Shown here: positions 1,770-22,355 of the stretch, in pieces
Position numbering within the stretch: position 1 is the first letter of the stretch
Layout of the letters: each line of letters opens with the position of its first letter
Assembly: GCF_016903815.1 (NCBI RefSeq)
Contig: NZ_CP069973.1
Strand: one strand, 5' to 3'
Source of the DNA: Escherichia coli
Lineage (GTDB): Bacteria; Pseudomonadota; Gammaproteobacteria; Enterobacterales; Enterobacteriaceae
Length of the DNA stretch: 64,000 nucleotides
The notes under the pieces: generated by a model
What the model was told of the DNA's origin: nothing
Database searches by the model: none
What the model saw: the letters and a program-made list of their open reading frames with translations, nothing else
Position numbers and translations under genes: made by a program

Positions 1770-1778
1770 ATAACAAAA

Positions 1779-1808
1779 AGCCAGCAGGCAGACACTGCTG
1801 GCTTTTTG
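1779..1808 (-). terminator. Rho-independent terminator hairpin after membrane-protein gene; also the 5' exon context of the intron
   Basis: GCCAGCAG-loop-CTGCTGGC stem followed by TTTTTGTT on minus strand. Confidence 0.5.
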
Positions 1809-1819
1809 TTATGGCGGGA

Positions 1820-2725
1820 TTAAAACAGGGGAACCAAGGTAAATAATCCAATGGTCGCCAACAGATTAATCATCGTGGTCATAATGGTGATGACCATCGC
1901 CGGCGGGTCAATATGTGTATCGCCGTGGATCAGGAAGATACGCGACATCAGTTCACCCAATATCGCGCAAATTATGCCAACGATAGCAGCCCAAATCAGG
2001 CTACCTGATGGCACCGCTACCAACGCGGCAGGCAGCGAAATATGATGTGACACCGGTACCTGAGTATTGAAATGCAGGAAAATCAGTGAGAACGCGGAAA
2101 TACCAAACGCCAGCAGCGCGCCGTTGCCGCCAAACTTCAGGCCTAAAAAGCCTGCCATCAAGCCAATACCCAAGCCCAGCACGGAAAGCTGCGGAATGCG
2201 GCTATGGTAAGGTATCCAGCACTTATCCTGCGGCGGATAGCAGTGACGAATTCCCTGCTCCGGTTTTCCAAACAGGCCAGTTTTACCGAAAACCAGACGC
2301 GAGACCACGCCAGAAATCACCACGGTTAGTGCCACGGTATCGGTCCAAGCATTGCCGGACGGGAAGGCCGGAATCTGGTTCAACCCCCAGGCGATGATGT
2401 AACCAACCGCCCCAAAAACCCCGCCTACCAGCAGCACATCGTAAGCCGCCAGACCGCTCAACCCGGCAGTGATATCACGCCCGGAACCCAGCTTGCCTTT
2501 CTTCGCTGCATACGCCGTCGCCGCAACCCCAGCGGCAAAGCCGCCGGTGTGCGGGCCAAACAGTCCAAACGGAAAAGTAATAAAGTCCGATGATGCTCCG
2601 GTAATAATTTGCACTACCGTCATGGCGATAACCAGAAGCCCAACGAATTCAAACGCCGCCAGCGCGCCAACAGCCGCACCAAATATGCCGCCGCCGAAGG
2701 CAACTACAATATCTAAGCTATTCAT
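1820..2725 (-). CDS. Glycine-rich multi-pass membrane protein, function unknown
   Basis: 301-aa ORF, hydrophobic Gly/Ala-rich segments throughout; last gene of the minus-strand cluster. Confidence 0.5.
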   Translation of the reverse strand: MNSLDIVVAFGGGIFGAAVGALAAFEFVGLLVIAMTVVQIITGASSDFITFPFGLFGPHTGGFAAGVAATAYAAKKGKLGSGRDITAGLSGLAAYDVLLVGGVFGAVGYIIAWGLNQIPAFPSGNAWTDTVALTVVISGVVSRLVFGKTGLFGKPEQGIRHCYPPQDKCWIPYHSRIPQLSVLGLGIGLMAGFLGLKFGGNGALLAFGISAFSLIFLHFNTQVPVSHHISLPAALVAVPSGSLIWAAIVGIICAILGELMSRIFLIHGDTHIDPPAMVITIMTTMINLLATIGLFTLVPLF

Positions 2726-2861
2726 CTAGCTTACCTCTGTAATTAAATCAAATGACAATATAAGTAATGCAGATTGCTCTATATTTTTAAAATTGAAATA
2801 GTATTCATGCGTAACAAATAAACAAGTGCAGCATTTTTTCGCACTCTTATTACATCTTTTA

Positions 2862-3779
2862 TTAACCGCCGATATGGCAGTTAAAACCTAAGGATTCAAC
2901 CATTGCTTTTAACTCTGCCATTTGGGCTTCTTCGATACTTTTTGTATCGCCCATCGGATACTGGCGACCAAGCAGATTATATTTATTTTCACCGAAGCTG
3001 TGATAAGGCAATAAGTGAATGGTATCGACGTTCTGCATCAGGCGGGCGAACTCCGCAATATTATGGATTTCCTGCGAATTGTCATTCACTCCTGGGATCA
3101 CAGGAATACGCACAACCACTTTGGTTAAAAAGGAGATGCGCAGCAGATTCTCCAGAATCACTCTGTTATTCACGCCGGTGTTGCGCTCATGGATTTCCGG
3201 ATCGATGGCTTTAATATCGGTCAGAGCAAGATCGACATAGGGAAATACCTCATCAATCACCGCTTTGGTGGTGAAGCCGCTTGTTTCAATAGCGGTGTGC
3301 CAGCCTTTGGCTTTACAGGCTTTAAGCAACTCGCGGGCAAATTCCGGCTGCGCCAGCGGTTCACCACCGGACAGGGTAATCCCGCCGCCTGAACGCCGGT
3401 ATAAATTCTCTTCTTTTTCCAGTTCGCGCATCACTGCCGTTACCGACATACGCTTGCCCTTCATTTCCAGCGCACGGGTAGGGCAAATCTCAGTACATTT
3501 CCCACACTGAATACAGCGGTCGCGATTGATAAACCAGGCATTAGTAATGGAAAGAGCCTGTTGTGGGCAAGCATCAATACATTTTCCACAGCGGATGCAA
3601 TCATTCTTTTTAAATAATAACTCTGGGCTGTGACGTTGTGATTCAGGATTACTACACCATTTGCAGGACAGCGGGCAGCCTTTAAAAAAAGGAATGGTTC
3701 GAATGCCTGGACCATCATGCAAAGAATAGCGTTGAATATTAAATATGACGCCTTCGGTTTCGTATTCAACTTTATTCAT
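2862..3779 (-). CDS. Glycyl-radical enzyme activating enzyme (radical SAM, PflA/CutD-like)
   Basis: CPLSCKWC radical-SAM cysteine motif plus two ferredoxin-like Cys clusters; directly downstream of the GRE gene. Confidence 0.8.
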   Translation of the reverse strand: MNKVEYETEGVIFNIQRYSLHDGPGIRTIPFFKGCPLSCKWCSNPESQRHSPELLFKKNDCIRCGKCIDACPQQALSITNAWFINRDRCIQCGKCTEICPTRALEMKGKRMSVTAVMRELEKEENLYRRSGGGITLSGGEPLAQPEFARELLKACKAKGWHTAIETSGFTTKAVIDEVFPYVDLALTDIKAIDPEIHERNTGVNNRVILENLLRISFLTKVVVRIPVIPGVNDNSQEIHNIAEFARLMQNVDTIHLLPYHSFGENKYNLLGRQYPMGDTKSIEEAQMAELKAMVESLGFNCHIGG

Positions 3780-3887
3780 AACATCACTCTATATTTACCA
3801 GATGAATTACCTTTTCAGATAAAAGTAACAACCAGAAGTCGTGGAGAAAGTAACGGGCTATATATTGATACATAGCCCGTCTGGTAT

Positions 3888-6440
3888 TTACGACAGTTGT
3901 TGCTCAGTACGGCTGATTATGTCGTCCTGAACTTCTTTCGCTAAAACTACCCACTGGGCGCTATAGCCCGCAACGCGTACCACCAGATCCTGATGTTGCT
4001 CAGGATTTTTCTGGGCTTCGATCAAAGTGTTGCGGTCGATAACGTTAAATTGAACGTGCATCCCTTTCTTATCGAAGTAGTGACGTATCAGGCCGCTGAA
4101 GTTGCGCAGACCGTTCTCGCCAGCCAAAGAAGACGGCAGGAATTTCTGATTATAGAGCGTACCGTTGGAGGCGATAAAGTGATCCAGTTTGGCAACTGAG
4201 TTGGCTGCGGCGGTTGGGCCAAGGGTGTCTTTACCCTGACGTGGAGATACGCCATCCGCCAACGGCTCTTTCGCCAGACGGCCATCCGGCAGTGCGGCAA
4301 CGTCTTTACCAAACAGCACGTTCGCAGACACCGGATAGATACCAGCCTGGAACTGGCCACCGCGCGGGTTGGTATATTTCTCAACTTCCTGGCAGTAGAT
4401 CAGCGCACATTTACGCGCTACTAAATCCACGTCATCGATGTCGTTACCGAAGCACGGTGTGTTTTCCAGAATACGACGGATCTCCTCGTGACGGGACATA
4501 GTGCCGGATTGCACCGGTGCTGCACTGCCGGAAGTCAGCTGGCGATAAACTTCGTTTTTAATCGCTGCCGGATCCAGAGCGCCATGCTGTTCAATGATGC
4601 GTTTCACCACATCGTAGATATCCTGCTCGTTGAGCGAGGATTTCGCCGCTGGAGTGTGCGGGTTCGCACCCACCGGATAACCGAAGTTGGCGTCCAGTGC
4701 GCTTTTCAGTTCGCTCAAAGACAGTTTACGATCTTCGAATACCTGTTTCTGGATGGCATAGACGGAGTCGCCGGTATCGGCTACGCCGAATGCTTGCGGC
4801 CCAGTAAAGTTGTAAATCGCCCCGCCTTCCTGGAGAGATTTACCACGGCCGATACAGTCGTCGACCAGTGCTGATAGGAACGGCAGCGGGCAGCGTTCGC
4901 CGTGGGCAATATCCACGCTGTTACAGGCTTCAACCAGTTGATGAACGAAGTGCGCCATCTGTTTCTGGAACGCGGTGTAGAAGTCCTCCATGCTGGTGAA
5001 CTGAGTCAGTTCGCCAGTCACTGGGCCTAGCTGTTTATTGCCAACGCGACCGTTGTTCAGGGTGATTTCCAGCACTTTTGCAACGTTAAAGAACGCGGCG
5101 TCATGCCAGCCCTCGGTGCGATGCGGTGCCTGCGGCTCTACGCAGCCGATGATACAGTAATCACGCGCATCACGCAGCGAAATGCCACGGTTCTGCAGCG
5201 CCGGGATGATTACTTCATCGTTGTACATTGCCGGAACGCCCAGGCCCATACGCACCAGCTCGCAAGCGCGATACAGAAACTCATCCGGAGTACCCTGCCA
5301 TACGCGGATTGAGAAGGATGGCTGCGGCAGACGCACATGGGCAGTCGCTTCCATACACATGTAGCTCAGATCGTTAGTTGCGTCGCGACCGTCTTCTGTC
5401 TGGCCGCCACAGCACAGGTTCTGGAACACTGCGTAACCGGCAAACGCCTGGGCAGAGACTTCGTCACGCGTTTTGTTAATGTCGTTAAGCTTGATCCAGC
5501 AGCAATCCACCAGTTCCTGCGCGAATTCACGCGAGATAGATTTGTCCGACTCCAGATACGGGTACATATACTGGTCGAAACGCCCCGGGGAGATAGAATG
5601 ACCGCTGGATTCAATCTGTAACATGCTCTGAATAAACCAGAATGTCTGGCATGCTTCCCAGAATGTGGTAGCACCGTATTCCGGCACGCGAGTACAGTTT
5701 TGAGCAATCTGCTCCAGTTCGCGTTTACGGGTCGGATTGCTCTCCTGCTGCGCCAGACGGGATGCTTCTTCAGCGTAACGATGGGCGAAACGGATCGCTG
5801 CGTTATAACTGATCAGCACCGCATTATAGAACTGTTCTTTCTTTATATATCCTGGTTCAGTGCGATCTAATGATTCCAAGGCACGGCTAACTTCATTAAT
5901 GATACCACGGAAACCAATTTTCAGCACTTTACCGTAGTCAACACTGACATGACCGACGCCCCCGAAGAAGTAGTTACCAACAGTGAATACACCGCTCGCC
6001 ATACTCTCTTTAGTGCCTTCTGACATGTAAGATGCCGCCAGAGCACTGGTAGTTTTACCCGGCCAGTATTTAAATGCTTCATGAAGCTCCTGAGCAGTCT
6101 TTTTCGGGATAACAAACGGGTCGGCAATACGGTGTTCCATAGTCTCAAACTCTTTTTCCACCCAGTCGTAGGAGAACTCAGGGCAGATTTCAGTTGAGCG
6201 AGGATTAATAGTTACCGCTCCAACGATTAATTCGTCTGGGCGAATTGTTACCGGTAATTGGTTAAAGATTTTTTCCACCACTTTAGCACGACGCATAATC
6301 GCGGGCAGTTGTTCTGTTTCTTTATATGCTTCGGTTGCTAACACCGCGCGTTCTGATTCCACATACGGCTTCGCCGTCAGGATCATATTTCTCAGTCTTA
6401 CAACACGGTCTGTCGGATTAGAAAAGCCTTTCTCTAACAT
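3888..6440 (-). CDS. Glycyl radical enzyme of the pyruvate formate-lyase family (choline TMA-lyase CutC-like or related eliminase/dehydratase)
   Basis: 850 aa; C-terminal glycyl radical motif RVAGYSAQ; Cys loop GCVEP; paired with an activase. Confidence 0.8.
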   Translation of the reverse strand: MLEKGFSNPTDRVVRLRNMILTAKPYVESERAVLATEAYKETEQLPAIMRRAKVVEKIFNQLPVTIRPDELIVGAVTINPRSTEICPEFSYDWVEKEFETMEHRIADPFVIPKKTAQELHEAFKYWPGKTTSALAASYMSEGTKESMASGVFTVGNYFFGGVGHVSVDYGKVLKIGFRGIINEVSRALESLDRTEPGYIKKEQFYNAVLISYNAAIRFAHRYAEEASRLAQQESNPTRKRELEQIAQNCTRVPEYGATTFWEACQTFWFIQSMLQIESSGHSISPGRFDQYMYPYLESDKSISREFAQELVDCCWIKLNDINKTRDEVSAQAFAGYAVFQNLCCGGQTEDGRDATNDLSYMCMEATAHVRLPQPSFSIRVWQGTPDEFLYRACELVRMGLGVPAMYNDEVIIPALQNRGISLRDARDYCIIGCVEPQAPHRTEGWHDAAFFNVAKVLEITLNNGRVGNKQLGPVTGELTQFTSMEDFYTAFQKQMAHFVHQLVEACNSVDIAHGERCPLPFLSALVDDCIGRGKSLQEGGAIYNFTGPQAFGVADTGDSVYAIQKQVFEDRKLSLSELKSALDANFGYPVGANPHTPAAKSSLNEQDIYDVVKRIIEQHGALDPAAIKNEVYRQLTSGSAAPVQSGTMSRHEEIRRILENTPCFGNDIDDVDLVARKCALIYCQEVEKYTNPRGGQFQAGIYPVSANVLFGKDVAALPDGRLAKEPLADGVSPRQGKDTLGPTAAANSVAKLDHFIASNGTLYNQKFLPSSLAGENGLRNFSGLIRHYFDKKGMHVQFNVIDRNTLIEAQKNPEQHQDLVVRVAGYSAQWVVLAKEVQDDIISRTEQQLS

Positions 6441-6488
6441 ATAAAACTCCCGAATATATTTTGTTAACCTTGCGGAGATGCCAGGGTA

Positions 6489-7064
6489 TTAATGAATAAT
6501 GCTAGTGCCCATTTGAGTAATAAAGTGACGTAATATTGCTGGATGCCCCATCCAGGTAGTCGCGGTTATTAAATTACCATCCACAATGGCTTCATCATCT
6601 GCGGCAGTGACCCACTGGCCACCCGCCATTTCCACTTCCGGTTTTACCGTAAAATATCCCGTCAGTTTCCGGCCTTTTAATACCCCAGCAGCGGCCAGAA
6701 TTTGTGGGCCATGACAAATTGCAGCAACAGGTAATGTTAAATTCATCGCGTAATGCACGATATCCAATACTGACTTATTTAATCGCAAGTATTCCGATGA
6801 ACGCCCACCAGAAATATAAACACCACTATATTCCTGTAACCTTATGTCATCAAATGATGCAGTTAATCTAAAAAGATGTCCGGGTTTTTCGGTGTAGGTC
6901 TGATCACCTTCAAAATCATGAATCGCGGTTTTAATAAACTCGCCGGTACGTTTTCCCGGACACACTACATCCACTCTGAAACCTAACATGTTTAATGCCT
7001 GCCATGGCACCATGACTTCATAGTCTTCAGAGAAATCGCCTGTGATAAGTAATATCTTCTTCAT
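6489..7064 (-). CDS. DJ-1/PfpI family protein
   Basis: Start taken at MKKILLITGDFSEDYEV; conserved AICHGPQIL nucleophile-elbow-like segment. Confidence 0.5.
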   Translation of the reverse strand: MKKILLITGDFSEDYEVMVPWQALNMLGFRVDVVCPGKRTGEFIKTAIHDFEGDQTYTEKPGHLFRLTASFDDIRLQEYSGVYISGGRSSEYLRLNKSVLDIVHYAMNLTLPVAAICHGPQILAAAGVLKGRKLTGYFTVKPEVEMAGGQWVTAADDEAIVDGNLITATTWMGHPAILRHFITQMGTSIIH

Positions 7065-7074
7065 AAGCGGACTC

Positions 7075-7374
7075 TCAAAACTGGTTATCGTCTTCCTCAA
7101 TGATTCGCATGGCTTCATGCACCGCCGCGACTTCGCCAAAAATGGCCAATGTGGTGATATGCTGAGGGCAACTGCCAAAGATTTCTGATACCACCACATT
7201 GGCGCTTTTACTGGCTACGTCGGCATAAAAATAGAGATCCGGAACCGGCAGTATTAACAAACCAATGGCGTCGATGCGAATCAAATCCAAACGCGAACGA
7301 AACTCCCCGGGCATACGCCGTTTCAACATAGCCAAAATATCCGGGGTCGGTGCGTTTATGATTCGTTTTTTCAT
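7075..7374 (-). CDS. BMC shell protein, PduU/EutS-like
   Basis: 99 aa; pattern resembles circularly permuted BMC domain. Confidence 0.55.
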   Translation of the reverse strand: MKKRIINAPTPDILAMLKRRMPGEFRSRLDLIRIDAIGLLILPVPDLYFYADVASKSANVVVSEIFGSCPQHITTLAIFGEVAAVHEAMRIIEEDDNQF

Positions 7375-7397
7375 CTTTAAGTCACCCTTCGCGATAG

Positions 7398-8915
7398 TTA
7401 GCGAATATTCAGCGCTTCAACCATTACACAGCGACGACGGCGTGCAAACGAACGCGCTGACGTAAGTCCCTCGCCGGTCGGTCCGGCAATCGTAAAGGTG
7501 GCATGCCCTTCACCGCCCACCCCCAGCCCTGCATAAGAGGGACCATTTTTAACAAAGATGGTGGTCTGGATCAGGCGCGCCATTTTGGTCAGCTTTTCGA
7601 CGTTGGTGGAGTGCATAACCGCGGTATGACGATTGCCGTGCTCCACTTTCACCGCCAGCTCAATGGCTTCATCAACATTGTCTACGCGCACCACCGGCAG
7701 GACCGGCATCATCAGCTCATGCACCACAAACGGATGTGTTTTCTCAGCCTCAATTAAGATGACTTTGATATCGTCGCCAACCTGGATTCCCAGTTGTTGC
7801 AGGATATAGCGCGCATCTTTGCCGACAAAGGCGGTATTCGGCCCAGTGCCTTTTTCATTAAGCACCAACGATTGCAGTTGTTGACTTAACTTCTTATCGC
7901 ACAACAGATAGGCACCGCTTTTCTTCATGCAGTGAATCAGATAGTCCGCTACCTGGTTCACAACAATCACCTCTTTTTCCGCCACGCACGGCAGGTTGTT
8001 GTCGAAGCTACAGCCCTTAATGATGTCGCGGGCTGCTTTTTCGATATCCGCCGTTTCATCTACCACAGCTGGCGGGTTACCTGCGCCTGCACCAATCGCT
8101 TTTTTACCTGATGACATCACGGTTTTCACGATGGCTGGACCGCCAGTCGCTACCAGCATGTTGATACGTGGGTCGTTGATCAGGACGTTGGTATTGTCGA
8201 TGGACGGTTTGGTCACCGTTACCACCATGTTAGCCGGTGCGCCCAACTGGGCAAGCTTGTTGTTGATCAGCTCAACCGCGTACAGCGACACTTTGCGCGA
8301 GCGCGGATGTGGACTGAACACCACAGTGTTGCCTGCCGCCAGCATGCCTATGCTGTTGTTGATAATGGTTTCGGTCGGGTTAGTCGTTGGTGTAATCGAA
8401 CCAATCACTCCGAACGCAGAGTATTCGATCAACGTTAAACCCCCGTCTCCGGAAACCGCGCTGGTGGTCAGATCTTCGATACCTGGCGTTTTCAGCGCTG
8501 CGACGCGGTTTTTGATCAGTTTGTCCTCGTAATTCCCCATGCCGGTCTCTTCCACCGCCATACGGGAAAGGGCACACAGCACATCTTCCTGCAGGAAGAC
8601 ATCGCGAATGCCATTGATAAACGAGGCGCGGTCTTGCATAGAACAGTGGCGATACTGCACTTGTGCCAAGACGGCGGCGGAAATCGCCTCATCCATGGTA
8701 TCGAATGCTCCAGTGCTAGCATTCGCTACCTTCGCTACCTGAGAGATCGCACTGGCGTCGCGCACGGAAGAGTGCTGCGCCAACGCCTTAGCGACAATTT
8801 CATCCAACCCGTCGACCCGCGCTGCTTCTGACGTGGCGGGAGCTTCATCCGGTGTTGCTTTGGTGAATTTGCTCAGAATGGTCGAGACAGCCTGAGCGAT
8901 TTCAATATCATTCAT
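7398..8915 (-). CDS. CoA-acylating aldehyde dehydrogenase (PduP/EutE-like)
   Basis: 505 aa ALDH-fold ORF in BMC operon context. Confidence 0.8.
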   Translation of the reverse strand: MNDIEIAQAVSTILSKFTKATPDEAPATSEAARVDGLDEIVAKALAQHSSVRDASAISQVAKVANASTGAFDTMDEAISAAVLAQVQYRHCSMQDRASFINGIRDVFLQEDVLCALSRMAVEETGMGNYEDKLIKNRVAALKTPGIEDLTTSAVSGDGGLTLIEYSAFGVIGSITPTTNPTETIINNSIGMLAAGNTVVFSPHPRSRKVSLYAVELINNKLAQLGAPANMVVTVTKPSIDNTNVLINDPRINMLVATGGPAIVKTVMSSGKKAIGAGAGNPPAVVDETADIEKAARDIIKGCSFDNNLPCVAEKEVIVVNQVADYLIHCMKKSGAYLLCDKKLSQQLQSLVLNEKGTGPNTAFVGKDARYILQQLGIQVGDDIKVILIEAEKTHPFVVHELMMPVLPVVRVDNVDEAIELAVKVEHGNRHTAVMHSTNVEKLTKMARLIQTTIFVKNGPSYAGLGVGGEGHATFTIAGPTGEGLTSARSFARRRRCVMVEALNIR

Positions 8916-8975
8916 CTTTAAATTCCTTACTACTCTTCATCTGCCGACCGCGCCGCGTGCATCGTCATCAGATGC

Positions 8976-9761
8976 TTAGATATATGGCGTCGTGGTGGAT
9001 TTAATTTCCACCGGATCTAACGTGGAGAGCAGTTGTAGACCGACTTCACGCGCGGCAATCACCGCCTGACGTACTGCACCGGAATCACCGGAGAAGGTGA
9101 AGATCACTTCGTTACTAAAGCTGGTGCCTTGCGACGGGCTGGCATAACCCACCGGGTCAATCACGGCGGATTTCGCCGCAGCGTCGGCAATCACCAGGCC
9201 AATCGCCGCAGGCGAGGCACAGGTCATCCCGAAGGATTTACCAATCGGCGCACCCAGCGCTTTATTCAGCGCGTAGCTGGCACGAGCGGTGTACTGGAAT
9301 TCAAGATGTCCGGCTGACGAGCCATAAACGTCACCCATGGTGCGTTCAATTTCAGACAGCGCCACTTCAACCGCACGCCTGACGTCGGAAACATCAGACG
9401 CACCGAAAATAATTAAGCAACCGTGTCCGCCACCTCCTTCGGTATCGCGGGCCAGCTCAATAGAAATAATTTCGCTGTTGGTTGCTTTAATCGCTTCGTC
9501 AGCCGCAAAAATTTGCGGGCCTGCGCCAGTACGTGCGCCAAGAATACCGATAGAGCGATATTTCTTGTCGATATTCATGACTTCATGCAATTGATTATCA
9601 ACATTGGCAATCACTAGGCCGATAGTGTGGCCCAACGCAGTGCCGACAAATTCCGTAATACCGCAACCAGCGAAATTCGCTGCTGTTTTAGCTTCCGGTG
9701 AGATATCGGTTTGTTTATTCATTACGTCAGATATAATCTGCTCAACAAGATTATCTCTCAT
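8976..9761 (-). CDS. BMC-T shell protein, PduB-like (tandem BMC domains)
   Basis: 261 aa; segments EFVGTALGHTIGLVIANVD, RSIGILGARTGAGP, TARASYAL, GDSGAVRQAV match my recollection of PduB. Confidence 0.7.
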   Translation of the reverse strand: MRDNLVEQIISDVMNKQTDISPEAKTAANFAGCGITEFVGTALGHTIGLVIANVDNQLHEVMNIDKKYRSIGILGARTGAGPQIFAADEAIKATNSEIISIELARDTEGGGGHGCLIIFGASDVSDVRRAVEVALSEIERTMGDVYGSSAGHLEFQYTARASYALNKALGAPIGKSFGMTCASPAAIGLVIADAAAKSAVIDPVGYASPSQGTSFSNEVIFTFSGDSGAVRQAVIAAREVGLQLLSTLDPVEIKSTTTPYI

Positions 9762-9782
9762 GATCAGTATCCTTTATTGTTA

Positions 9783-10064
9783 TTAACCGATAGCCTTCGG
9801 TAGAATTTTTTCCACCTCAATGTGTGGGCGTGGAATAACATGTACGGAGACCAGTTCTCCCACTTTACTCGCAGCAGCGGAGCCCGCATCTGTCGCGGCT
9901 TTCACTGCGCCAACGTCGCCGCGAACCATCACAGTCACCAAGCCGGAGCCGATTTTTTCATAACCCACTAGGGTCACGTTGGCAGATTTCACCATGGTAT
10001 CTGCAGCTTCAATTGCAGAAACCAGACCTTTCGTTTCAACCATTCCTAATGCTTCTTGTTGCAT
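9783..10064 (-). CDS. BMC-H shell protein, PduA/EutM-like
   Basis: Start taken at [14 protein letters not shown]; single BMC domain. Confidence 0.75.
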
Positions 10065-10348
10065 AACGACCTCAATATTTCCGATAGAAAGAAAACGTGC
10101 ACAGAGGAATAGCAATCTACGGATTCACCCATGTGCATTAATTATTTAATTATCATAATGCTAAGGTTATTCAGACAAAATGTTTTGCGCGTCAGTGGGA
10201 CTATCTTGCTTTTGCATTCCCGCAATTGACAATAAAATCCACCCGAGGTTTGTAATAAAAGATCTGCGTTTAAACTTCCTTGCAAAATAGCCCCGCTCTG
10301 AATAGCGATCATAATTACTGTTAAAACTGTCGTATTTTTGCCAATTAG

Positions 10349-11545
10349 TTATGCCGTGCGGGCAATCTCCGCTGCATCTATAGCAATCATTTTTTCTTCA
10401 TTGGTTGGGATGACCGCAATCTTCGTGGTGTCGGTTTTAGAAATCAGTCCGCTACGTCCGCCGAACAGCTGCTGGTTACGTTCTTTATCCAGTTCCAATC
10501 CCAGCGCCTGAAGGCGTTGCACGGTAAGTTCTCGAATTAACGCCGAGTTTTCGCCAATTCCACCGGTGAAAATCAGCGCATCGAAGCGTTTAAGCGAGGT
10601 CACGTGGCCGCCGATATGTCGTGCGAGACGATGTACTAACACGTCGATGGCTAACGCTGCCCGTTCGTGGCCCTCATCACGCGCCTGCTGAAGGGTGCGG
10701 CAATCGCTGGATAAGCCGGAAATCCCCATTAGGCCGGACTGGTTATTGAGCATTTTGTACAGCGTGTCGAATGTTTGACCTGTGCGTTTCGCCAGATATG
10801 CGACGACACCAAAATCAAGATCCCCGCAGCGCGTGCCCATTACCAGCCCTTCCAGCGGGGTCATACCCATTGAGGTGTCAATGCTCGTGCCGTTTTGCAC
10901 CGCACATAGCGATGAACCGTTGCCCAAGTGGGCAATCACGATGCCATGATCCGCCGGGTCGAGATCTAGTGATGCAAGCGCTTCTGCGGCAATATAGCGG
11001 TGAGATGTTCCGTGAAAGCCGTAACGTCGCACCATATAATCTTGCTGGAACTCCAGCGGGATCGCATAGGTGTAAGCAGCCGGAGACAAGGTCTGGTGGA
11101 ACGCAGTATCGAACACCGCAATATGCGGCAACGCGGGCAACAGAGCCCGAGCCGCTTCAATACCAATCAGGTTGGCAGGGTTATGCAAAGGGGCCAGCAC
11201 CGACAGCGCGCGGACTTTTTCGATCACATCATCGGTAACCAGTACTGATCTTTTGAAGTCGCTGCCGCCATGAGCCACGCGGTGCCCAACGGCGTTGATG
11301 GCTTCCAACAGTTGCTGTTCGTCGAGCTTCGCGAAGAGCACTTTGAGCGCATGCTGATGGCTGGCGTCATCCAGCGCGACAGTGGATTTATGGCCGTCTC
11401 GGTCTTTAAACGTTATGACAGCATGATCAATACCCAGTCGTTCCGCTAGGCCCGACAGCAACGGCTGATCTGCATCCTGAGGAATGACGGAGAATTTCAT
11501 TGATGAGGAACCACAATTAATCACTAATACACAAGCTAAAGACAT
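10349..11545 (-). CDS. Acetate/propionate kinase
   Basis: N-terminal VLVINCGSSSMKF motif; start taken at MSLACVLVIN to avoid overlap with upstream gene. Confidence 0.75.
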   Translation of the reverse strand: MSLACVLVINCGSSSMKFSVIPQDADQPLLSGLAERLGIDHAVITFKDRDGHKSTVALDDASHQHALKVLFAKLDEQQLLEAINAVGHRVAHGGSDFKRSVLVTDDVIEKVRALSVLAPLHNPANLIGIEAARALLPALPHIAVFDTAFHQTLSPAAYTYAIPLEFQQDYMVRRYGFHGTSHRYIAAEALASLDLDPADHGIVIAHLGNGSSLCAVQNGTSIDTSMGMTPLEGLVMGTRCGDLDFGVVAYLAKRTGQTFDTLYKMLNNQSGLMGISGLSSDCRTLQQARDEGHERAALAIDVLVHRLARHIGGHVTSLKRFDALIFTGGIGENSALIRELTVQRLQALGLELDKERNQQLFGGRSGLISKTDTTKIAVIPTNEEKMIAIDAAEIARTA

Positions 11546-11573
11546 GATGCCCCCTGAAATGGACTGCAAAAAA

Positions 11574-12071
11574 TTAACGGGTTGTTGTGAGGGGATAACG
11601 CAGAACGCTAAACTGCGCCATCGCCTGGCGGGCGATGAGCATATCTTCCTCAACACTGCCGCCGCTGATGCCGATGCCGCCTAGTAAGCGCCTGCCCGAC
11701 CAGCAGGGAAAACCACCGCCGAAGCAGCAGATATCTTTTTCTTTCTCAAGGCCGTACAAATCACCACCCGGCTGTACCAGCGTTGCCAGTTCGTGAGTTG
11801 GCATTTTGAGAGCTACCGCGGTCCAGGCCTTTTGTGGTGCCAAGGTATGGCTGACCAGCAGGGCGTTATCCATGCTGAAGAAAAAACGCTGCTGACCGCA
11901 GGCATCCACTAGGCTAAAAACGATCGATACATTGCTGGACTGTGCCATTTCCCGGGCCAACTTTGCCAGCAGTTCACTGTCCTCCAGGCTCAGCGACATC
12001 CGGAGTTCCGGTAACTGCGTGGCAATAGCCTCATTAATCCAGTTGTCGAGTGAAGCCTCATTCGCAGACAT
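11574..12071 (-). CDS. DUF336/GlcG-like (PduO C-terminal domain-like) protein
   Basis: 165 aa; GGIGISGG-type motif. Confidence 0.55.
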   Translation of the reverse strand: MSANEASLDNWINEAIATQLPELRMSLSLEDSELLAKLAREMAQSSNVSIVFSLVDACGQQRFFFSMDNALLVSHTLAPQKAWTAVALKMPTHELATLVQPGGDLYGLEKEKDICCFGGGFPCWSGRRLLGGIGISGGSVEEDMLIARQAMAQFSVLRYPLTTTR

Positions 12072-12098
12072 AAGTATTCCTCAGCGTACGCGCCGCTA

Positions 12099-12368
12099 TT
12101 AACCGTTAAGTTCGAGCGTGTCGACGATACCCACCACGGCAGCGTCAATCACCGAGTGATCTTTGTTGTTGCTCATACGCGCCGAACTGCCGGTGGTGAT
12201 GATCACAATCTCTCCATTGCCCGCGCCGACAGTATCAACTGCCACCTGGGCATGGACAGTCGGCTGATAGTTTTCATCGAGCCGCGCCACTATCAGCAGT
12301 TTTGAGCCATTCAGCGAGGCGTGTTTGGTGGTGGAAACCAATGCGCCAGTAACTTTAGCGAGGTACAT
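12099..12368 (-). CDS. BMC vertex protein, EutN/PduN/CcmL family
   Basis: 89 aa with typical BMC-P size and pattern. Confidence 0.7.
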   Translation of the reverse strand: MYLAKVTGALVSTTKHASLNGSKLLIVARLDENYQPTVHAQVAVDTVGAGNGEIVIITTGSSARMSNNKDHSVIDAAVVGIVDTLELNG

Positions 12369-12379
12369 ATTTCCTCCGG

Positions 12380-13105
12380 TTAACCATGGATAACAGTGAG
12401 ATTACGCCGCTGGATTTCATCTCTGGCAGCAGGGGTAATCAGCGTGTCGCTCTCAATGCGCAGCACTGTGCCAATGGTCAGTAGGCGGATATCGCTCTGG
12501 GTGATTAAACGTTTTTTACCGGCTACTGTCAGGGTGGATTGGCTTCCTTGCACCGACTTGACATGGGCTGCACGTTTACCGAAAAGCGTAATGCCATAGC
12601 TCTCTAGGACCTGAGCGTAACCTTCCAGACAAGACAGCAGTGGCATCGGTAATTCGCTATCGACGCATTGTTGATGCAGCGTGGCGATAATCTGTTTACG
12701 GTGCTGTAACGCCTGAAATACAGTTTCACAGGCCAGATTATCGCGAATGCCCAGCGCAATTTTGCTCATGCTGTTGACAGAGAGCGCAGGCAGATAGAGC
12801 ACCTCATAGTGAGGCGGCGATCTGTCAAATCCAGCACGAGAACCACGCTGAATTAGCGCATCCATGCAGACAGATTTCAGCGCCGACTGGCTGGCGCTGT
12901 GAGAAAAATTTACCCACAACTGATAGCCCGCCAGCTCAAGCGCCTCAAGGCAGTTCAGCGTTTCCGGCAGCGAGGAGATATCCTCACCAGTCACCACTAC
13001 GCAGACATTTTTCTGCGCGACGGATTGTGCCAACACTTCAGCGATGACCCGGTCCAGCAGTTGCGATAAGGTTTGATTGTCCATTGATTTACCCCTGGTC
13101 CGCAT
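12380..13105 (-). CDS. Hypothetical microcompartment-locus protein (possibly PduM-like)
   Basis: 241-aa ORF embedded in the operon; no motif I can place confidently. Confidence 0.35.
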   Translation of the reverse strand: MRTRGKSMDNQTLSQLLDRVIAEVLAQSVAQKNVCVVVTGEDISSLPETLNCLEALELAGYQLWVNFSHSASQSALKSVCMDALIQRGSRAGFDRSPPHYEVLYLPALSVNSMSKIALGIRDNLACETVFQALQHRKQIIATLHQQCVDSELPMPLLSCLEGYAQVLESYGITLFGKRAAHVKSVQGSQSTLTVAGKKRLITQSDIRLLTIGTVLRIESDTLITPAARDEIQRRNLTVIHG

Positions 13106-13847
13106 TCATGGCGATGCCTAATGGTGTGACCAATAGTGGCTCTGCCGAAGGAATCACATTTTTACCGGTTTGTTTACTGAACACGTTGGCAAACTGGCTG
13201 AAGCTGCTCGCGCCACCTACCAAATAAATATTTTTTACCTGCTGGGTAGCGAACCATCCCGACACCAAGCTGGCCATTTTCTGGGCCACCGGTAGCACCA
13301 GGGTAAAGACCTGCGCTTCCTGCCCGTTTTTTTTCATTTCTTCCGCCTCGGCATAAGGCAAGCCCAGCGCGCCAGCGATCACCAACTTCATATGGCTTCC
13401 ACCGGTGGGCTCATCGGCACTGAACGTCACTTTACCGCTTTTCAAAATGCTCATGCCGGTGGTGCCTCCTCCGACATCCACCACCGCCCCGTTTTTAATA
13501 TTCAGCGCGCTGGCAGCGGCTACCGGTTCATCTAGTACTTGGGTCACGATAAAACCCGCCAACTCCACTACGTTGACGATCACTTTTGTGTTGCCTTCAG
13601 AGATCCCCGGTGGGACTGCGATCGCCGCGCGCTCCAGCGTGCAGCCCTGTTTCTGTTCAAGAATTTGTTTGAGACGTGCTACTACCCGGCTGGCGGTCAG
13701 GTAATCCACCACCACGCCGTCTTTCACCACATTGGAGGGATACATTACCCCTGCCACCGGCTGGTTATCTTCATCCAGCACCACGATTGCGATATTGGCG
13801 GTACCGAGATCCCCCCCACCTTCAACGCGCCGGAGTAGGGCCGACAT
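13089..13847 (-). CDS. EutJ-like actin-fold ATPase/chaperone
   Basis: DLGT near N-terminus, VVDVGGGTTG, DEPTGGSH segments typical of EutJ. Confidence 0.7.
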   Translation of the reverse strand: MSALLRRVEGGGDLGTANIAIVVLDEDNQPVAGVMYPSNVVKDGVVVDYLTASRVVARLKQILEQKQGCTLERAAIAVPPGISEGNTKVIVNVVELAGFIVTQVLDEPVAAASALNIKNGAVVDVGGGTTGMSILKSGKVTFSADEPTGGSHMKLVIAGALGLPYAEAEEMKKNGQEAQVFTLVLPVAQKMASLVSGWFATQQVKNIYLVGGASSFSQFANVFSKQTGKNVIPSAEPLLVTPLGIAMNADQG

Positions 13848-13901
13848 TCGCCGCTGTCAATCAGCGCGGCCAATTCGTGAAATCGGCAGTTTTCGGGGCT
13901 G

Positions 13902-14588
13902 TTAGCCATGGCGCGCAGCCTGTTTTATGCCGCGAACGGTATCGCCATTACGCAGACCGACGCCGTTAGCTTCTTCCATATCAATATGCAGTTCCAGCAC
14001 TGCATCCGCCGTGACGCGTACCACTACATGGCTGAGCACACCACCGCGCGGACCGTTTGTTTGCACATCGATTTCCATTCCGTCATGCAGGCCGTGCAAT
14101 TCGGCTTCTTCGGGCGAGATATGGATATGGCGCCAGGCGACAATCATGCCGTTGTGTTTCACCACCCGCCCTTTCGGACCGATGATTTCAATGCCCGGCG
14201 AATCCAGCAGATCCCCCGACATGCGCACCGGAGCTTTAGTGCCCAGCGCAAAGCCGTCGGCCACAGAGATTTCCACCTGCGTGGCATTACGCAGTGGCCC
14301 TAACACGCGCACTTTGTTGAGCTCGCCTTTTGGCCCGCGCAGCGTCACCATCTCTTCGGCGGCATACTGACCGGGCTGTTTCAACGCTTTAGAACGGGTT
14401 AGCGTAGAGCCGTAGCCAAACAGAATGTCCATATCTTCACGGCACAGATGAACATGGCGGTTGGACACGCCCACCGGAATATTCAGCGCGACGGGCGCGG
14501 CAGCAGGCGCTGCCGTTTTTTTACTGGTGGCAAGTTCCTGCAAAATTTGTTGGGTAATCCACTCGGCTTGTTGTTCGGTGTAATTCAT
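13902..14588 (-). CDS. PduL-type phosphotransacylase
   Basis: 228 aa with two PduL-like repeats (HVHL...; HIHIS...). Confidence 0.7.
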   Translation of the reverse strand: MNYTEQQAEWITQQILQELATSKKTAAPAAAPVALNIPVGVSNRHVHLCREDMDILFGYGSTLTRSKALKQPGQYAAEEMVTLRGPKGELNKVRVLGPLRNATQVEISVADGFALGTKAPVRMSGDLLDSPGIEIIGPKGRVVKHNGMIVAWRHIHISPEEAELHGLHDGMEIDVQTNGPRGGVLSHVVVRVTADAVLELHIDMEEANGVGLRNGDTVRGIKQAARHG

Positions 14589-14727
14589 AATGGGTACGAC
14601 CTGATTATTGGGTTATCTTATGGGTAATGGGCGTCTAACGATCAGGATAGGGAGTAACGACGCCCGGTTTTTGTTTATCAGCAGGACTTTTTTGACTGCT
14701 TCACGGAGGCTGAACAAAGTTATCCAG

Positions 14728-15846
14728 CTAGCCGGTAATCAGGTCGATCAACCCTTCGACATCATGCGTCGTCACCTGCCGCGGGTTCGACGCGGTACAA
14801 CCGTCGGCCAGCGTCGAATTCACCAGTGCGCTGCGCAACTCGATGATTTTTGCACGGTCGATACCCAGTTCGCTGAGAGTGACGGGGATGCAGAAATGGC
14901 GATTGATCTGGCGGATCTCCTGAGTCATCAGCGCGATGGCCTGCTCCGGTACCGCATGGTCAATGCCTATGATTTGCGCGCAACGGTGATAGCGATCGCG
15001 GGTTTCAGTGCTGGCCCGTTTGCTGTTGAAGTCGATGACAATCGGCAGCAGCATGGCGTTAATTTTGCCATGAGGAATATGCAGCATCCCGCCGATGGCG
15101 TGTGCCATGCCGTGTACCAACCCCAGCCCGGCGGAGTTAAATGCCATGCCTGCCATACAGGAGGCATTGTGCATGTGGGTGCGCGCCGCAATGTCTTTTT
15201 CGTCGTTAAACACCTGCGGCAGATAGCGCCAGGTCAACGCGATGGCTTTTTCCGCCAGCGCATCGCTAAAGTCATTTGAGCCAGTAGAGACAAAGGCTTC
15301 AATGGCATGGGTCAGCACGTCCATGCCGGTATCTACCGCGACATGACGCGGCGCGGTTAACACTAGGTTAGGATCGAGAATGGCGATTTCCGGCACCAGT
15401 TGCCCGGAGATCAACGGATATTTGCGGCCATTTTGCGGATCAGAGATGATCGCGTAGGACGTCACTTCAGAGCCGGATCCGCTGGTTGTGGGAATAGCAA
15501 TGAGATCGATTTGATGATCTCCAAAATACTCTTCCAATGTGACTTTAATTCCTTTCGCAGCGTCCAGCGACGAGCCGCCGCCGAGGGCGATAATAACGTC
15601 GGGCTTAAAGGCTTTAAAACGCGCCGCGCCGGAAGTCAGAATATCAATATCTGGATCCGGAGTAACCTCGCCGAAAATGCATACCGATGCCTCAGGCATA
15701 TGGCTTATTAAATAACGAGTTTTACCTGATGACATCATAAAATCATCGGTGACAATACCGACTCGTTTATTATTAAATTGGCATAGAGAGGTTATTGCCT
15801 CTTCACCAAAATAAATTTTGGGGCACGAAAAATAATAGCGGGCCAT
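14728..15846 (-). CDS. Iron-containing alcohol dehydrogenase (PduQ/EutG-like)
   Basis: 372 aa; GGGSSLD and metal-binding His-rich segment; first gene of the minus-strand cluster. Confidence 0.8.
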   Translation of the reverse strand: MARYYFSCPKIYFGEEAITSLCQFNNKRVGIVTDDFMMSSGKTRYLISHMPEASVCIFGEVTPDPDIDILTSGAARFKAFKPDVIIALGGGSSLDAAKGIKVTLEEYFGDHQIDLIAIPTTSGSGSEVTSYAIISDPQNGRKYPLISGQLVPEIAILDPNLVLTAPRHVAVDTGMDVLTHAIEAFVSTGSNDFSDALAEKAIALTWRYLPQVFNDEKDIAARTHMHNASCMAGMAFNSAGLGLVHGMAHAIGGMLHIPHGKINAMLLPIVIDFNSKRASTETRDRYHRCAQIIGIDHAVPEQAIALMTQEIRQINRHFCIPVTLSELGIDRAKIIELRSALVNSTLADGCTASNPRQVTTHDVEGLIDLITG

Positions 15847-16064
15847 GTGTAACTACCTTAATCATGGTAAACGACCAAATTTGATGTCGTTAACCTAACA
15901 TGGCGATTTTTTTAATGGACTGAGGATGTTTGTGCAGGTGAAGGATTATTTTGCGGTATTGTTTTGCCTTGAGCAAAAAAGTCCTTTTCTAGGAAATACC
16001 TAAAATCTGATACAGTCAAACTCAATATTTATTGTCAGAGAATGAATAAAAGCGGGGTGTTTTT

Positions 16065-16703: not shown

Positions 16704-16723
16704 TACAACCATCAAGGGGAATA

Positions 16724-17032: not shown

Positions 17033-17084
17033 TAAGTGGATTATGCTGCCATCAGGCAGTGTGATTGCCGGCAGGGATTTCGTT

Positions 17085-17899: not shown

Positions 17900-18265
<366 letters not shown>

Positions 18266-18357
18266 GTTTTTTTATTTCTGAATAAAGCGACATCCACGAT
18301 ATAACGTCGTGGGTGTCGGTGATGATTCTTTTTTTGTTCGCAGATTAAGGTGCGTTT

Positions 18358-20145
<1,788 letters not shown>

Positions 20146-22343: not shown

Positions 22344-22355
22344 GGGCAAATCCAA

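Follow-up and report, generated by a model that had tools for sequence, protein, structure and literature searches.

The grpA-grpO unit of an Escherichia coli genome is predicted to encode a GRM3-type microcompartment for B12-independent 1,2-propanediol fermentation

Introduction

Between positions 1820 and 15846 of a 64,000-nucleotide stretch of Escherichia coli DNA (here called the window), a gene for a glycyl radical enzyme (GRE) lies among genes for microcompartment shell proteins, dehydrogenases and a membrane protein. The original prediction recognized an aldehyde-generating GRE metabolosome, a call of the correct kind, and left open whether the enzyme is a choline trimethylamine-lyase or a 1,2-diol dehydratase. 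This raises the question of which substrate the locus serves and whether the system is a known one. We consider it very probable that the span is the transcription unit grpA-grpO, part of the grp (glycyl radical propanediol) locus of E. coli, which is predicted to encode a GRM3-type microcompartment for B12-independent 1,2-propanediol fermentation. The grp locus is real, not new; it already carries a name in RefSeq and has been the subject of genetic work in uropathogenic-type E. coli.

Identity and extent of the locus

The span contains 15 intact co-directional genes: the 14 predicted genes, all recovered in place, and the gene for a 241-aa protein that had been left without a call. They and the other window features given coordinates below are on the minus strand. 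E. coli strain 222 (NZ_CP020516.1) matches the whole window with 100% identity, and its RefSeq record labels genes grpA to grpO across exactly this span. The RefSeq starts replace the too-early starts of three mechanical open reading frames, namely grpL (6489-7064, 191 aa, not 236), grpH (9783-10064, 93 aa) and grpG (10349-11545, 398 aa). At least 80% of the span is present in 536 of the 5426 complete E. coli genomes, nearly always at 99% identity or more, which makes about 10% of complete genomes carriers of the grp locus.

The span is one transcription unit within a larger locus. The genes for the regulators (grpPQ), a SAM synthetase (grpR) and a fifth shell protein (grpS) are located off the left edge of the window, beyond position 1, and are separated from grpO by a terminator and a group II intron. 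According to Lundin 2020, as cited in PMC11724981 and PMC13210347, the locus in strain CFT073 reportedly encodes 1,2-propanediol fermentation and depends on GrpP/GrpQ to be expressed. We predict the function in the strain of the window from the identity to the CFT073 proteins and from the homologs.

The glycyl radical enzyme and its substrate

GrpM (3888..6440; WP_000890295.1, the same accession as GrpM of CFT073) scores 788 bits against the GRE profile TIGR01774 (cut-off 678) and also matches PF02901 and PF01228. CutC, HypD and sulfopropanediol dehydratase were rejected as identities for GrpM, with model scores that all fell far under the cut-offs. The glycyl radical and Cys loops that the GRE call implied are both present, as RVAGY at 822 (Gly825) and GCVEP at 432, and H164, H281/S282, C433, E435 and D447 are conserved. 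GrpM is 90% identical to the GRM3 propanediol dehydratase of Raoultella (PDB 9RCO), for which a crystal structure with bound 1,2-propanediol is available. Residues F339 and V704 form the same pair as in the Roseburia propanediol enzyme, whereas the glycerol dehydratase has Y339/S642. Furthermore, an internal insertion of about 55 residues (594-648), typical of propanediol-type GREs, corresponds to the insertion of about 60 residues described in a review for all GRM3/4/5 enzymes.

Taken with the failed CutC model, these residues and the identity to the Raoultella enzyme narrow the earlier choice to a 1,2-propanediol dehydratase, and on sequence grounds we regard the predicted substrate, 1,2-propanediol and not choline, as settled. 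The Raoultella GRM3 enzyme is also stabilized by ethylene glycol, and the physiological substrate range of GrpM may therefore be wider than 1,2-propanediol. The radical-SAM activating enzyme GrpN (2862..3779; TIGR02494, 414 bits vs. 174) has a CX3CX2C motif at residue 35, followed at residues 61 and 89 by Cys motifs of the ferredoxin type.

Downstream enzymes and shell proteins

GrpJ (7398..8915) is a PduP-like, CoA-acylating propionaldehyde dehydrogenase (NF011927, 732 bits vs. 403) with an N-terminal extension of about 60 residues; it matches PDB 5JFL/5JFN with E 1e-212, and the alignment with 4C3S, a Clostridium enzyme that lacks an EP, starts only at residue 60. GrpB (13902..14588) is a PduL-type phosphotransacylase (NF011652, 257 bits vs. 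a cut-off of 209), in which the profile match begins at residue 37 and the match to PDB 5CUO (E 2e-70) at residue 36; the preceding extension of about 35 residues is probably an encapsulation peptide. The best PDB matches of GrpJ and GrpB are thus 5JFL (aldehyde dehydrogenase) and 5CUO (PduL), both of which we take to be Rhodopseudomonas palustris GRM3 proteins. GrpA (14728..15846; WP_000135343.1, the same in CFT073) is named as such in RefSeq and is an iron-type alcohol dehydrogenase (PF00465, PF25137). The ATP-yielding step falls to the propionate/acetate kinase GrpG (10349..11545), for which the earlier acetate kinase call gives way to the propionate kinase model NF009045 as the best fit (694 bits vs. 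a cut-off of 580).

All the shell proteins match either a BMC profile or a BMC protein of solved structure. GrpH (9783..10064) is a PduA/EutM-like BMC-H hexamer protein (PF00936; EutM model 129 bits, E 7e-38) and GrpI (8976..9761) a PduB-type tandem BMC-T protein (TIGR04501, 391 bits vs. 310; NF011944, 423 vs. 173). The BMC-P pentamer (vertex) protein GrpE (12099..12368; PF03319) matches the CcmL and EutN models with E 4e-26 and 5e-20, both under the equivalog cut-offs. GrpK (7075..7374) had been called PduU-like but is a permuted BMC-H protein of the GrpU type, with a match over residues 1-99 to PDB 4OLP, the 'GrpU microcompartment shell protein' (E 1e-48), and a GSCPQ sequence at residue 67 that belongs to the Fe-S pore motif G-S-C-P-Q-H as defined in PMC6325248.

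Accessory proteins

The earlier PduL, EutJ-like, PduA-, PduB- and PduN-like shell, DUF336, DJ-1/PfpI and membrane-protein calls are all borne out by matching profiles. GrpO (1820..2725), a polytopic membrane protein of the DUF7973 family (PF25928), is probably a diol channel or facilitator. GrpC, GrpD, GrpF and GrpL are conserved accessory proteins with putative roles. GrpC (13089..13847) is an EutJ-like protein of the actin/Hsp70 fold (TIGR02529, 384 bits vs. a cut-off of 152), and GrpF (11574..12071) is HbpS-like with a DUF336 domain (PF03928; 'heme-binding protein GrpF' in RefSeq).

The 241-aa protein that lacked a call is GrpD (12380..13105), for which a flavoprotein-like domain of the UbiX/HFCD fold is predicted at residues 33-175 and a small PduM-like C-terminal domain at 200-241. 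The PF02441 match covers residues 33-142 (E 6e-6), a weak PDU_like match covers 189-236 and TIGR02536 matches with E 4e-9. The AlphaFold2 model has a mean pLDDT of 85, and its best Foldseek matches are UbiX, CoaC, EpiD-like proteins and DmrB (E 1e-5, TM to target 0.55-0.6); a PALSxNS...DN motif is unchanged in 42 homologs. Model and profiles point to a flavoprotein-like protein with a PduM-like tail.

GrpL (6489..7064) has one DJ-1/PfpI domain (TIGR01382, 153 bits vs. 139), in which Glu16, Cys117 and His118 are present, and belongs to the plant DJ-1D type. It matches the two halves of Arabidopsis DJ-1D (4OFW) with E 5e-55 and 2e-62 and PfpI-type proteases with 2e-24, and is far closer to the plant DJ-1D glyoxalase III than to the proteases. 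In other genera, the slot of grpO in the locus can be filled by MIP channels.

Regulatory elements and the group II intron

Two sets of sequence blocks are conserved across five genera. One lies upstream of grpA (15925..15983; TTTTTTGCTC ... GCAAAATAATCC ... GCACAAAC) and is probably the main grp promoter/operator. The other, a promoter-like element in the 284-nt grpG-grpH spacer (10182..10236; TTTATTGTC ... CAAGATAGTCC ... GCGCAAAAC(ATTTT)), is probably a GrpQ-dependent internal promoter. The composite-motif regular expression has exactly one match in the 64-kb window and one match each in three of four other loci, always at the grpG-grpH spacer; the 20-mer has one match vs. 0.02 expected, and a weak -35/-10 pair at 10178-10149 lies immediately downstream. 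The E. coli regulators were confirmed by domain as a PocR-domain kinase (GrpP) and an AraC-type response regulator (GrpQ).

The grpA-grpO unit is closed by an intrinsic terminator at 1775..1807, read from the sequence as a hairpin followed by a U-run (-25.5 kcal/mol, z -7.1). Directly after it comes the group II intron (1..1769; Rfam RF02001 141 bits, RF01998 74 bits), which is outside the pathway and splits grpO from grpP. It has GTGCG at 1769-1765 and a reverse transcriptase frame (246-1334) interrupted by an in-frame stop at 795-797; its 3' end lies beyond the window, and domain V/VI is whole only in the longer locus L005.

Proposed pathway

We hypothesize that 1,2-propanediol would enter the cell, probably via GrpO, and cross a shell of GrpH (hexamer), GrpI (PduB-type trimer), GrpK (GrpU-type Fe-S hexamer), GrpE (pentamer) and GrpS, the gene for which lies outside the window. 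GrpN would generate a radical at Gly825 in GrpM; as in the solved homologous enzymes, this radical would move to Cys433, which would take a hydrogen from C1 of the diol, and Glu435, His164 and Asp447 would aid the loss of the C2 hydroxyl to yield propionaldehyde, a toxic aldehyde that the shell would keep inside. GrpJ would convert propionaldehyde to propionyl-CoA and NADH, while GrpA would reduce a second aldehyde to 1-propanol and recycle NAD+. GrpB would then make propionyl-phosphate and recycle CoA, and GrpG would yield propionate and ATP. Expression would probably be driven by GrpP and GrpQ, encoded past the window edge, from the elements upstream of grpA and grpH.

Alternative explanations

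We also considered a choline-utilization (cut, GRM1/GRM2) microcompartment, in which the GRE would be a choline trimethylamine-lyase that produces acetaldehyde and trimethylamine. The aldehyde and alcohol dehydrogenases, phosphotransacylase, shell proteins and EutJ belong to an accessory set common to all GRM types, and CutC structures are distant homologs of GrpM (E 1e-140 to 1e-152), but with the CutC equivalog TIGR04394 GrpM reaches 555 of the 1050 bits required, and with the CutC activase model the activase reaches 329 of 360. GrpM shares His164 and Asp447 with diol dehydratases, where CutC reportedly has Asp and Thr, and it has the internal insertion and not an N-terminal extension; together with the 90% identity to a propanediol dehydratase, this leaves the choline reading with almost no probability. 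If the substrate were instead glycerol or ethylene glycol, likewise small vicinal diols, the compartment would handle 3-hydroxypropionaldehyde or acetaldehyde and not propionaldehyde. The second-best PDB match of GrpM is indeed the C. butyricum glycerol dehydratase (1063 bits), and ethylene glycol occupies the active site of the Raoultella enzyme and protects it against proteolysis. However, glycerol gives that enzyme only minor protection, at 1.5 M, residues 339/704 are Phe/Val and not Tyr/Ser, the R. palustris GRM3 enzyme is reported to be exclusive for 1,2-propanediol and the R. palustris aldehyde dehydrogenase prefers propionaldehyde. The PocR domain in GrpP and the fit of GrpG to the propionate kinase model likewise speak against a different diol as the physiological substrate, which we consider very unlikely.

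Even less likely, although ahead of choline, is that the locus has lost its function in this strain and is decaying as a passenger of a mosaic genomic island. The neighborhood is rich in IS elements, pseudogenes and T6SS fragments, an intron with a broken reverse transcriptase separates grpO from grpP, and RefSeq annotates grpH of CFT073 as frameshifted. Against this, all 15 open reading frames are intact, most with protein accessions identical to those of CFT073, the intron follows the terminator and is inside no gene, and 537 records hold the span at 99% identity or more, a sign of recent spread or constraint.

Comparison with known systems

The grp locus of uropathogenic E. coli CFT073 (Lundin et al. 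2020, J Bacteriol 202:e00017-20) matches this locus in gene content and order, and an intron remnant likewise lies between its grpO and grpP genes. Protein accessions are identical for GrpA, B, C, D, G, I, J, K, L, M and O, GrpE, F and N have other accessions and so differ by a few substitutions, and grpH is intact in the window but not in the CFT073 annotation. The window copy is in an island adjoining tRNA-Phe, dsbD and cutA, and the CFT073 copy is at 4.306-4.326 Mb. Loci in Vibrio, Pectobacterium, Celerinatantimonas and Brenneria follow the E. coli gene order, and every one of them also has an additional BMC gene, a SAM synthetase and a PocR kinase paired with an AraC regulator.

The GRM3 loci of R. 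palustris BisB18 and Rhodobacter capsulatus (Zarzycki 2017, PMC5311937; Schindel 2019) share the GRE propanediol dehydratase, with an encapsulation insertion that is internal, extra Fe-S motifs in the activase, a long N-terminal extension on the PduP-type aldehyde dehydrogenase, PduL, a DJ-1 gene beside the GRE gene and an EutJ-X-EutN-HbpS block; DUF7973 homologs occur in both genera. The gene order differs in the one alphaproteobacterial-type locus compared, L009, which holds a DJ-1 protein named for Rhodospirillum rubrum. The E. coli type has a GrpU-type shell protein, which a review (PMC6325248) places mainly in the GRM3b subgroup.

The GRM5 propanediol dehydratase of Roseburia inulinivorans (PDB 5I2A) aligns with GrpM end to end, including the insertion, and has the same active-site residues, including Phe and Val at the methyl pocket. 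GRM5 loci, according to the review that describes the insertion, have an added fuculose-phosphate aldolase and lactaldehyde reductase, always PduS and PduT, and an activase without the ferredoxin-like insertion. The cut (GRM2) locus of E. coli and Klebsiella is likewise a GRE metabolosome in the Enterobacteriaceae with similar accessory enzymes, but its CutC, whose model GrpM fails, has an N-terminal extension of about 350 residues and the locus lacks an Fe-S shell protein (PMC6325248).

The Pdu system (pduA-X) of Salmonella enterica shares with grp the substrate, the downstream chemistry (PduP, PduQ, PduL and PduW equivalents), a PocR-type sensing domain and shell proteins of the PduA, PduB and PduN types. 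Pdu has a MIP-family diffusion facilitator, PduF, where grp has the DUF7973 protein as the probable equivalent, and the signature enzyme of Pdu is the B12-dependent PduCDE with a reactivase and cobalamin-recycling genes, whereas grp has a glycyl radical enzyme with its activase and a SAM synthetase.

Results

The region between positions 1820 and 15846 holds 15 intact genes on the minus strand; the original prediction of fourteen co-directional genes was right about the direction and one short in the count. Over its full 64 kb, the window shows 100% identity with the chromosome of Escherichia coli strain 222 (NZ_CP020516.1, 4573668-4637667, reverse-complemented), a urine isolate in which the 15 genes carry the RefSeq names grpA to grpO, and CFT073 contains the same gene set in an unchanged order. 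The protein accessions for GrpA, B, C, D, G, I, J, K, L, M and O are common to the two strains. Because the window matches named grp genes in strain 222 and CFT073, the observation is confirmed with small corrections: the genes are those of the previously described grp locus, which encodes a propanediol microcompartment of the GRM3 type and probably of the GrpU-bearing subgroup GRM3b. The span was recovered at a coverage of at least 80% from 536 of the 5426 complete E. coli genomes, nearly all with an identity of at least 99%. The true starts of grpL (7064), grpH (10064) and grpG (11545) are located downstream of the longest-ORF starts. The major BMC-H shell gene grpH (9783-10064, minus strand) is intact in the window, and its counterpart in the reference genome of CFT073, the strain used in the genetic study, is annotated by RefSeq as a frameshifted pseudogene (positions 21812-22095 of L007, the CFT073 locus).

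All of the gene classes that had been named passed their profile tests. The glycyl radical enzyme (GRE) gene grpM scored 788 bits against TIGR01774 (cut-off 678) and also matched PF02901 and PF01228, while the activase gene grpN scored 414 against TIGR02494 (cut-off 174), the CoA-acylating aldehyde dehydrogenase gene grpJ 732 against NF011927 (403), the PduL gene grpB 257 against NF011652 (209), the EutJ gene grpC 384 against TIGR02529 (152), the PduB-type shell gene grpI 391 against TIGR04501 (310) and the DJ-1/PfpI gene grpL 153 against TIGR01382 (139). Pfam assigned grpA to the iron alcohol dehydrogenases (PF00465), grpH to BMC-H (PF00936), grpE to BMC-P (PF03319) and grpF to HbpS/DUF336 (PF03928), and grpO encodes a DUF7973 membrane protein. 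The kinase GrpG, previously called an acetate kinase, is best fitted by the propionate kinase model NF009045 (694 vs. 580).

A microcompartment locus is recognized when a BMC-P gene (PF03319) and one or more genes for BMC-H or BMC-T proteins (PF00936) are found in a cluster with enzyme genes, and this is the arrangement of the grp genes: PF00936 was matched by GrpH, GrpI and GrpK and PF03319 by GrpE, the PduB models scored above their cut-offs, and no shell gene failed its BMC profile. The GRM3 type is defined by a GRE and its activase accompanied by genes for AldDH, PTAC, ADH and shell proteins, without the aldolase and reductase of GRM5 and without CutC. This gene content was found at 1820-15846, a region with no aldolase or lactaldehyde reductase gene. 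The prediction of an aldehyde-generating GRE metabolosome is supported.

The 99-aa protein GrpK was first read as PduU-like, a reading that we replace. It aligns over its full length with the solved GrpU shell protein 4OLP (E = 1e-48) and has the pore motif GSCPQH at residues 67-72. GrpU-type proteins are permuted BMC-H proteins with the pore motif G-X-C-P-Q-N/H, and the family binds Fe-S (PMC6325248). By its sequence, GrpK is a GrpU-type, predicted Fe-S shell protein. The shell would consist of GrpH, GrpI, GrpK and GrpE along with GrpS, which is encoded outside the window. Compared to structures of homologs that lack encapsulation peptides, GrpJ and GrpB have N-terminal extensions of 60 and 35 residues, respectively, which fits with targeting of these enzymes to the lumen.

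The substrate of GrpM had been left open between choline and a 1,2-diol. GREs of the PFL-like superfamily are identified by a C-terminal RVxG[FWY] motif and a Cys loop in the middle of the protein, and neither is missing from GrpM, which has RVAGY at 822 (Gly825) and GCVEP at 432 (Cys433, Glu435). GrpM shares 90% identity across 792 aligned residues with 9RCO, a propanediol dehydratase of the GRM3 type from Raoultella planticola whose crystals had 1,2-propanediol bound at the active site (PMC12756279). Its alignment with residues 1-586 of the glycerol dehydratase of Clostridium butyricum (1R8W) is free of gaps, and the alignments to 1R8W and to the propanediol dehydratase of Roseburia (5I2A) show that His164, His281/Ser282, Cys433, Glu435 and Asp447 (C. 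butyricum numbering) are retained. Tyr339 and Ser642 of the glycerol dehydratase correspond to Phe339 and Val704 in GrpM, and the Roseburia enzyme likewise has Phe and Val. According to work by LaMattina from 2016, this Phe and Val reportedly form a methyl pocket that discriminates propanediol dehydratase from glycerol dehydratase. Neither 1R8W nor the crystallized construct of 9RCO contains the 55-residue insertion (594-648) of GrpM, which aligns with the insertion in 5I2A. All GRM3, GRM4 and GRM5 enzymes have such an internal insertion of about 60 residues, a predicted encapsulation peptide, rather than an N-terminal extension (PMC6325248, PMC5311937), and the enzymes of R. palustris and Roseburia have been shown to convert 1,2-propanediol to propionaldehyde in vitro (PMC6325248).

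The alternatives were compared with the aid of curated model cut-offs. GrpM scored 555 bits against the CutC model TIGR04394, which has an equivalog cut-off of 1050, and GrpN scored 329 against the cut-off of 360 for the CutC activase (TIGR04395). Among the PDB matches of GrpM, CutC ranked sixth. The scores of GrpM were also below the cut-offs for HypD (608 vs. 1100) and for the sulfopropanediol dehydratases HpfG (704 vs. 1000) and HpsG (560 vs. 1000), so that the CutC, HypD and sulfopropanediol dehydratase models reached only about half to 70% of their cut-offs. The pocket residues, the insertion and the 90% identity to 9RCO support the 1,2-diol dehydratase option, and the comparisons point to 1,2-propanediol, not choline, as the substrate of GrpM.

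Downstream of grpO is a strong hairpin terminator (1775-1807), with a folding energy of -25.5 kcal/mol and a z-score of -7.1. It was absent from the minus-strand list in a terminator scan of 1500-2900 and was confirmed by folding instead. Only 6 nt after the U-run of the terminator begins a group II intron (1-1769, minus strand), which starts with GTGCG at 1769-1765 on the strand of the operon. RF02001, RF01998 and RF00029 are above gathering, with domain matches at 1372-1660. Domain V/VI is cut by position 1 of the window and the 3' end is located beyond it; the full extent is 101-1906 in L005, a longer version of the locus that continues past this edge. A stop codon in frame at 795-797 interrupts the reverse transcriptase ORF (246-1334). 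Copies with 94-96% identity and an intact ltrA are found on E. coli plasmids, and this remnant is also present between grpO and grpP in CFT073. Terminator-targeting group II introns are characterized by ribozyme domains and by insertion immediately 3' of an intrinsic terminator, and both features are seen here; following Robart's work from 2007, the intron presumably belongs to class C. Past the intron, outside the window, are grpP, grpQ, grpR (SAM synthetase) and grpS (BMC), where GrpP combines a PocR sensor domain with a histidine kinase and GrpQ a receiver with an AraC-type HTH. The segment 1820-15846 is therefore described here as one transcription unit, not as the entire grp locus. When positions 1-18400 were scanned with Rfam (E = 0.1), the grp operon yielded neither a riboswitch nor a leader, and the group II intron was joined by one further match. 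This sub-threshold match, to Thr_leader (1711-1811, plus strand), scored 37 bits against a gathering threshold of 55 and overlaps the bidirectional hairpin of the grpO terminator, and was taken as a chance hit.

The 284-nt spacer between grpG and grpH contains the blocks TTTATTGTC, CAAGAnAGTC and GGGCAAAACATTTT, which are conserved across the grp-type loci of five genera: E. coli, Vibrio, Pectobacterium, Celerinatantimonas and Brenneria. In the window, the composite pattern has a single match (10182-10236, minus strand); Vibrio, Pectobacterium and Brenneria have one match apiece, and every match falls within the grpG-grpH spacer. The strict motif has no match in the Celerinatantimonas locus. 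A similar three-part pattern is located upstream of grpA (about 15925-15983, minus strand), and the block GGCAAAAC belongs to the conserved elements upstream of grpA and grpH. Since the grpA variant does not match the regular expression for the grpH spacer, the two elements are similar, not identical. Both are likely to be promoters and binding sites of the AraC-type regulator GrpQ, and the location of one of them upstream of grpH would imply an internal promoter for the shell and GRE half of the operon. A scan of 9700-16800 for the sigma-70 consensus yielded 8 matches compared to 6.7 expected, and is thus uninformative on its own.

The segment 18400-25979 has the content typical of a mosaic island and includes a NERD and UvrD-helicase protein (18400-20145, plus strand; "3'-5' exonuclease" in RefSeq) followed at 20500-25979 by type VI secretion remnants (ImpA_N, VasL and POTRA fragments), IS2 and a trio of PAPS-reductase-like, IbrB-like and PerC genes. 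Another group II intron (29276-30784), whose ltrA reverse transcriptase/maturase gene is intact, is embedded among IS3 and IS30 fragments. At 32838-40141, an Orn/Lys/Arg decarboxylase gene (35358-37727) is located between two genes for basic amino acid/polyamine antiporters and bracketed by copies of IS1 (32838-33531, frameshifted, and 39444-40141), with an additional IS1A at 42134-42831; this looks like an IS1-mobilized module of the acid-resistance type. The right border of the island that carries the grp locus is marked at 44660-46198, where tRNA-Phe (46123-46198, minus strand) adjoins a tyrosine integrase gene; beyond this are the core genes dicD, dsbD, cutA, dcuA, aspA, groSL, efp, ampC and frd. 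To the left, the island continues past the edge of the window. The copy in CFT073 is located at 4.306-4.326 Mb, with partly similar flanks.

Discussion

The breakdown of fucose and rhamnose in the gut yields 1,2-propanediol. The grp locus would provide ATP from this compound without oxygen or cobalamin in about 1 in 10 sequenced E. coli strains, including CFT073, for which polyhedral compartments and B12-independent fermentation of 1,2-propanediol have been reported (Lundin, 2020, as cited in PMC11724981 and PMC13210347). The regulators GrpP and GrpQ have been tied to the expression of type 1 fimbriae and bladder invasion (PMC11724981). Since the locus is already described in the literature and annotated in RefSeq, no new biology is added by its identification; the comparative observations provide testable leads on GrpC, D, F, L and O, the conserved accessory proteins, and on the electron route to the encapsulated activase.

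By analogy with the GRM3 enzymes of R. palustris characterized in vitro (PMC5311937) and the reported genetics of CFT073, the pathway would start with GrpN, which has a CX3CX2C motif at residue 35 and two ferredoxin-type motifs, using SAM and an electron to generate the radical at Gly825. Cys433 would then take the C1 hydrogen from the diol, and elimination of the C2 hydroxyl would give propionaldehyde. GrpJ would convert the aldehyde to propionyl-CoA and NADH, and GrpA would reduce it to 1-propanol with NAD+ being regained. GrpB would form propionyl-phosphate and free CoA, and GrpG would finally produce propionate and ATP.

The 241-aa protein GrpD (12380-13105), for which there was no previous call, is named flavoprotein in RefSeq. 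It matches PF02441 at residues 33-142 (Pfam, E = 6e-6) and the eut-associated TIGR02536 (NCBIfam, E = 4e-9), and has a weak PduM-like match at the C-terminus. A sequence search against the PDB gave only a match to EpiD at E = 0.7. An AlphaFold2 model built from a 42-sequence alignment has a mean pLDDT of 85, and in a Foldseek search its N-terminal domain grouped with UbiX, CoaC, decarboxylases of the EpiD type and DmrB, a redox cage (E about 1e-5, probability 1.0, TM to target 0.55-0.6). The HFCD/UbiX family (PF02441) is characterized by a Rossmann-like fold and the flavin-site motif PA(S/T)xNT...DN. In GrpD, the motif PALSxNS...DN (PALSVNS...RDN) is invariant in the 42-sequence family and aligns with the EpiD motif, and TGxDxxTLP takes the place of the usual glycine-rich phosphate loop at the N-terminus. 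With this non-canonical loop, flavin binding by GrpD is no more than plausible. A gene in the slot of GrpD (EutJ, X, EutN, HbpS) is present in all related loci compared, including one from an alphaproteobacterium. One hypothesis is that GrpD may be a flavin carrier anchored in the lumen by its PduM-like tail, and that it may relay electrons between the Fe-S pore of GrpK and the activase GrpN. How electrons reach the activase inside the shell was flagged as an open question in a review from 2019 (PMC6325248), and such a relay, if true, would explain the activation or re-activation of a GRE that is encapsulated.

GrpL (6489-7064, minus strand) is named protease in RefSeq. By a wide margin, its closest relatives in the PDB are the two halves of Arabidopsis DJ-1D (4OFW, E = 5e-55 and 2e-62), compared to 2e-24 for proteases of the PfpI type and 6e-15 for E. 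coli YhbO. Glu16, Cys117 and His118 are present, and the Cys-His pair aligns with both DJ-1D halves. Work by Kwon from 2013 is said to have identified AtDJ-1D as a glutathione-independent glyoxalase III that converts methylglyoxal and glyoxal to lactate and glycolate. Homologs with about 60-65% identity to GrpL are widespread and mostly standalone, and a DJ-1 gene is located directly upstream of the GRE gene in both gamma- and alphaproteobacterial GRM3 loci. The likeness to DJ-1D and this conserved place suggest a role in carbonyl detoxification or adduct removal, not proteolysis, which we offer as a lead only. We found no paper in the open-access literature linking PfpI or DJ-1 to GRMs, and no assay of GrpL in the literature. 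More specifically, GrpL may be a glutathione-independent glyoxalase or an aldehyde-adduct hydrolase that clears reactive carbonyl side products near the GRE. GrpO, in turn, may found a new family of diol channels with a urea-transporter/Amt-like fold in place of the aquaporin-type PduF. On this view, the database names of these three accessory proteins may not describe what they are. That GrpL, GrpD and GrpO jointly represent a carbonyl remover of the DJ-1D type, a flavin electron relay and a new diol channel is a speculative combination that we consider unlikely to hold in full.

Among the known systems, the B12-dependent Pdu compartment overlaps in function with the grp compartment, and the two are in this sense redundant. 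The cut compartments for choline are distinct from the grp compartment.
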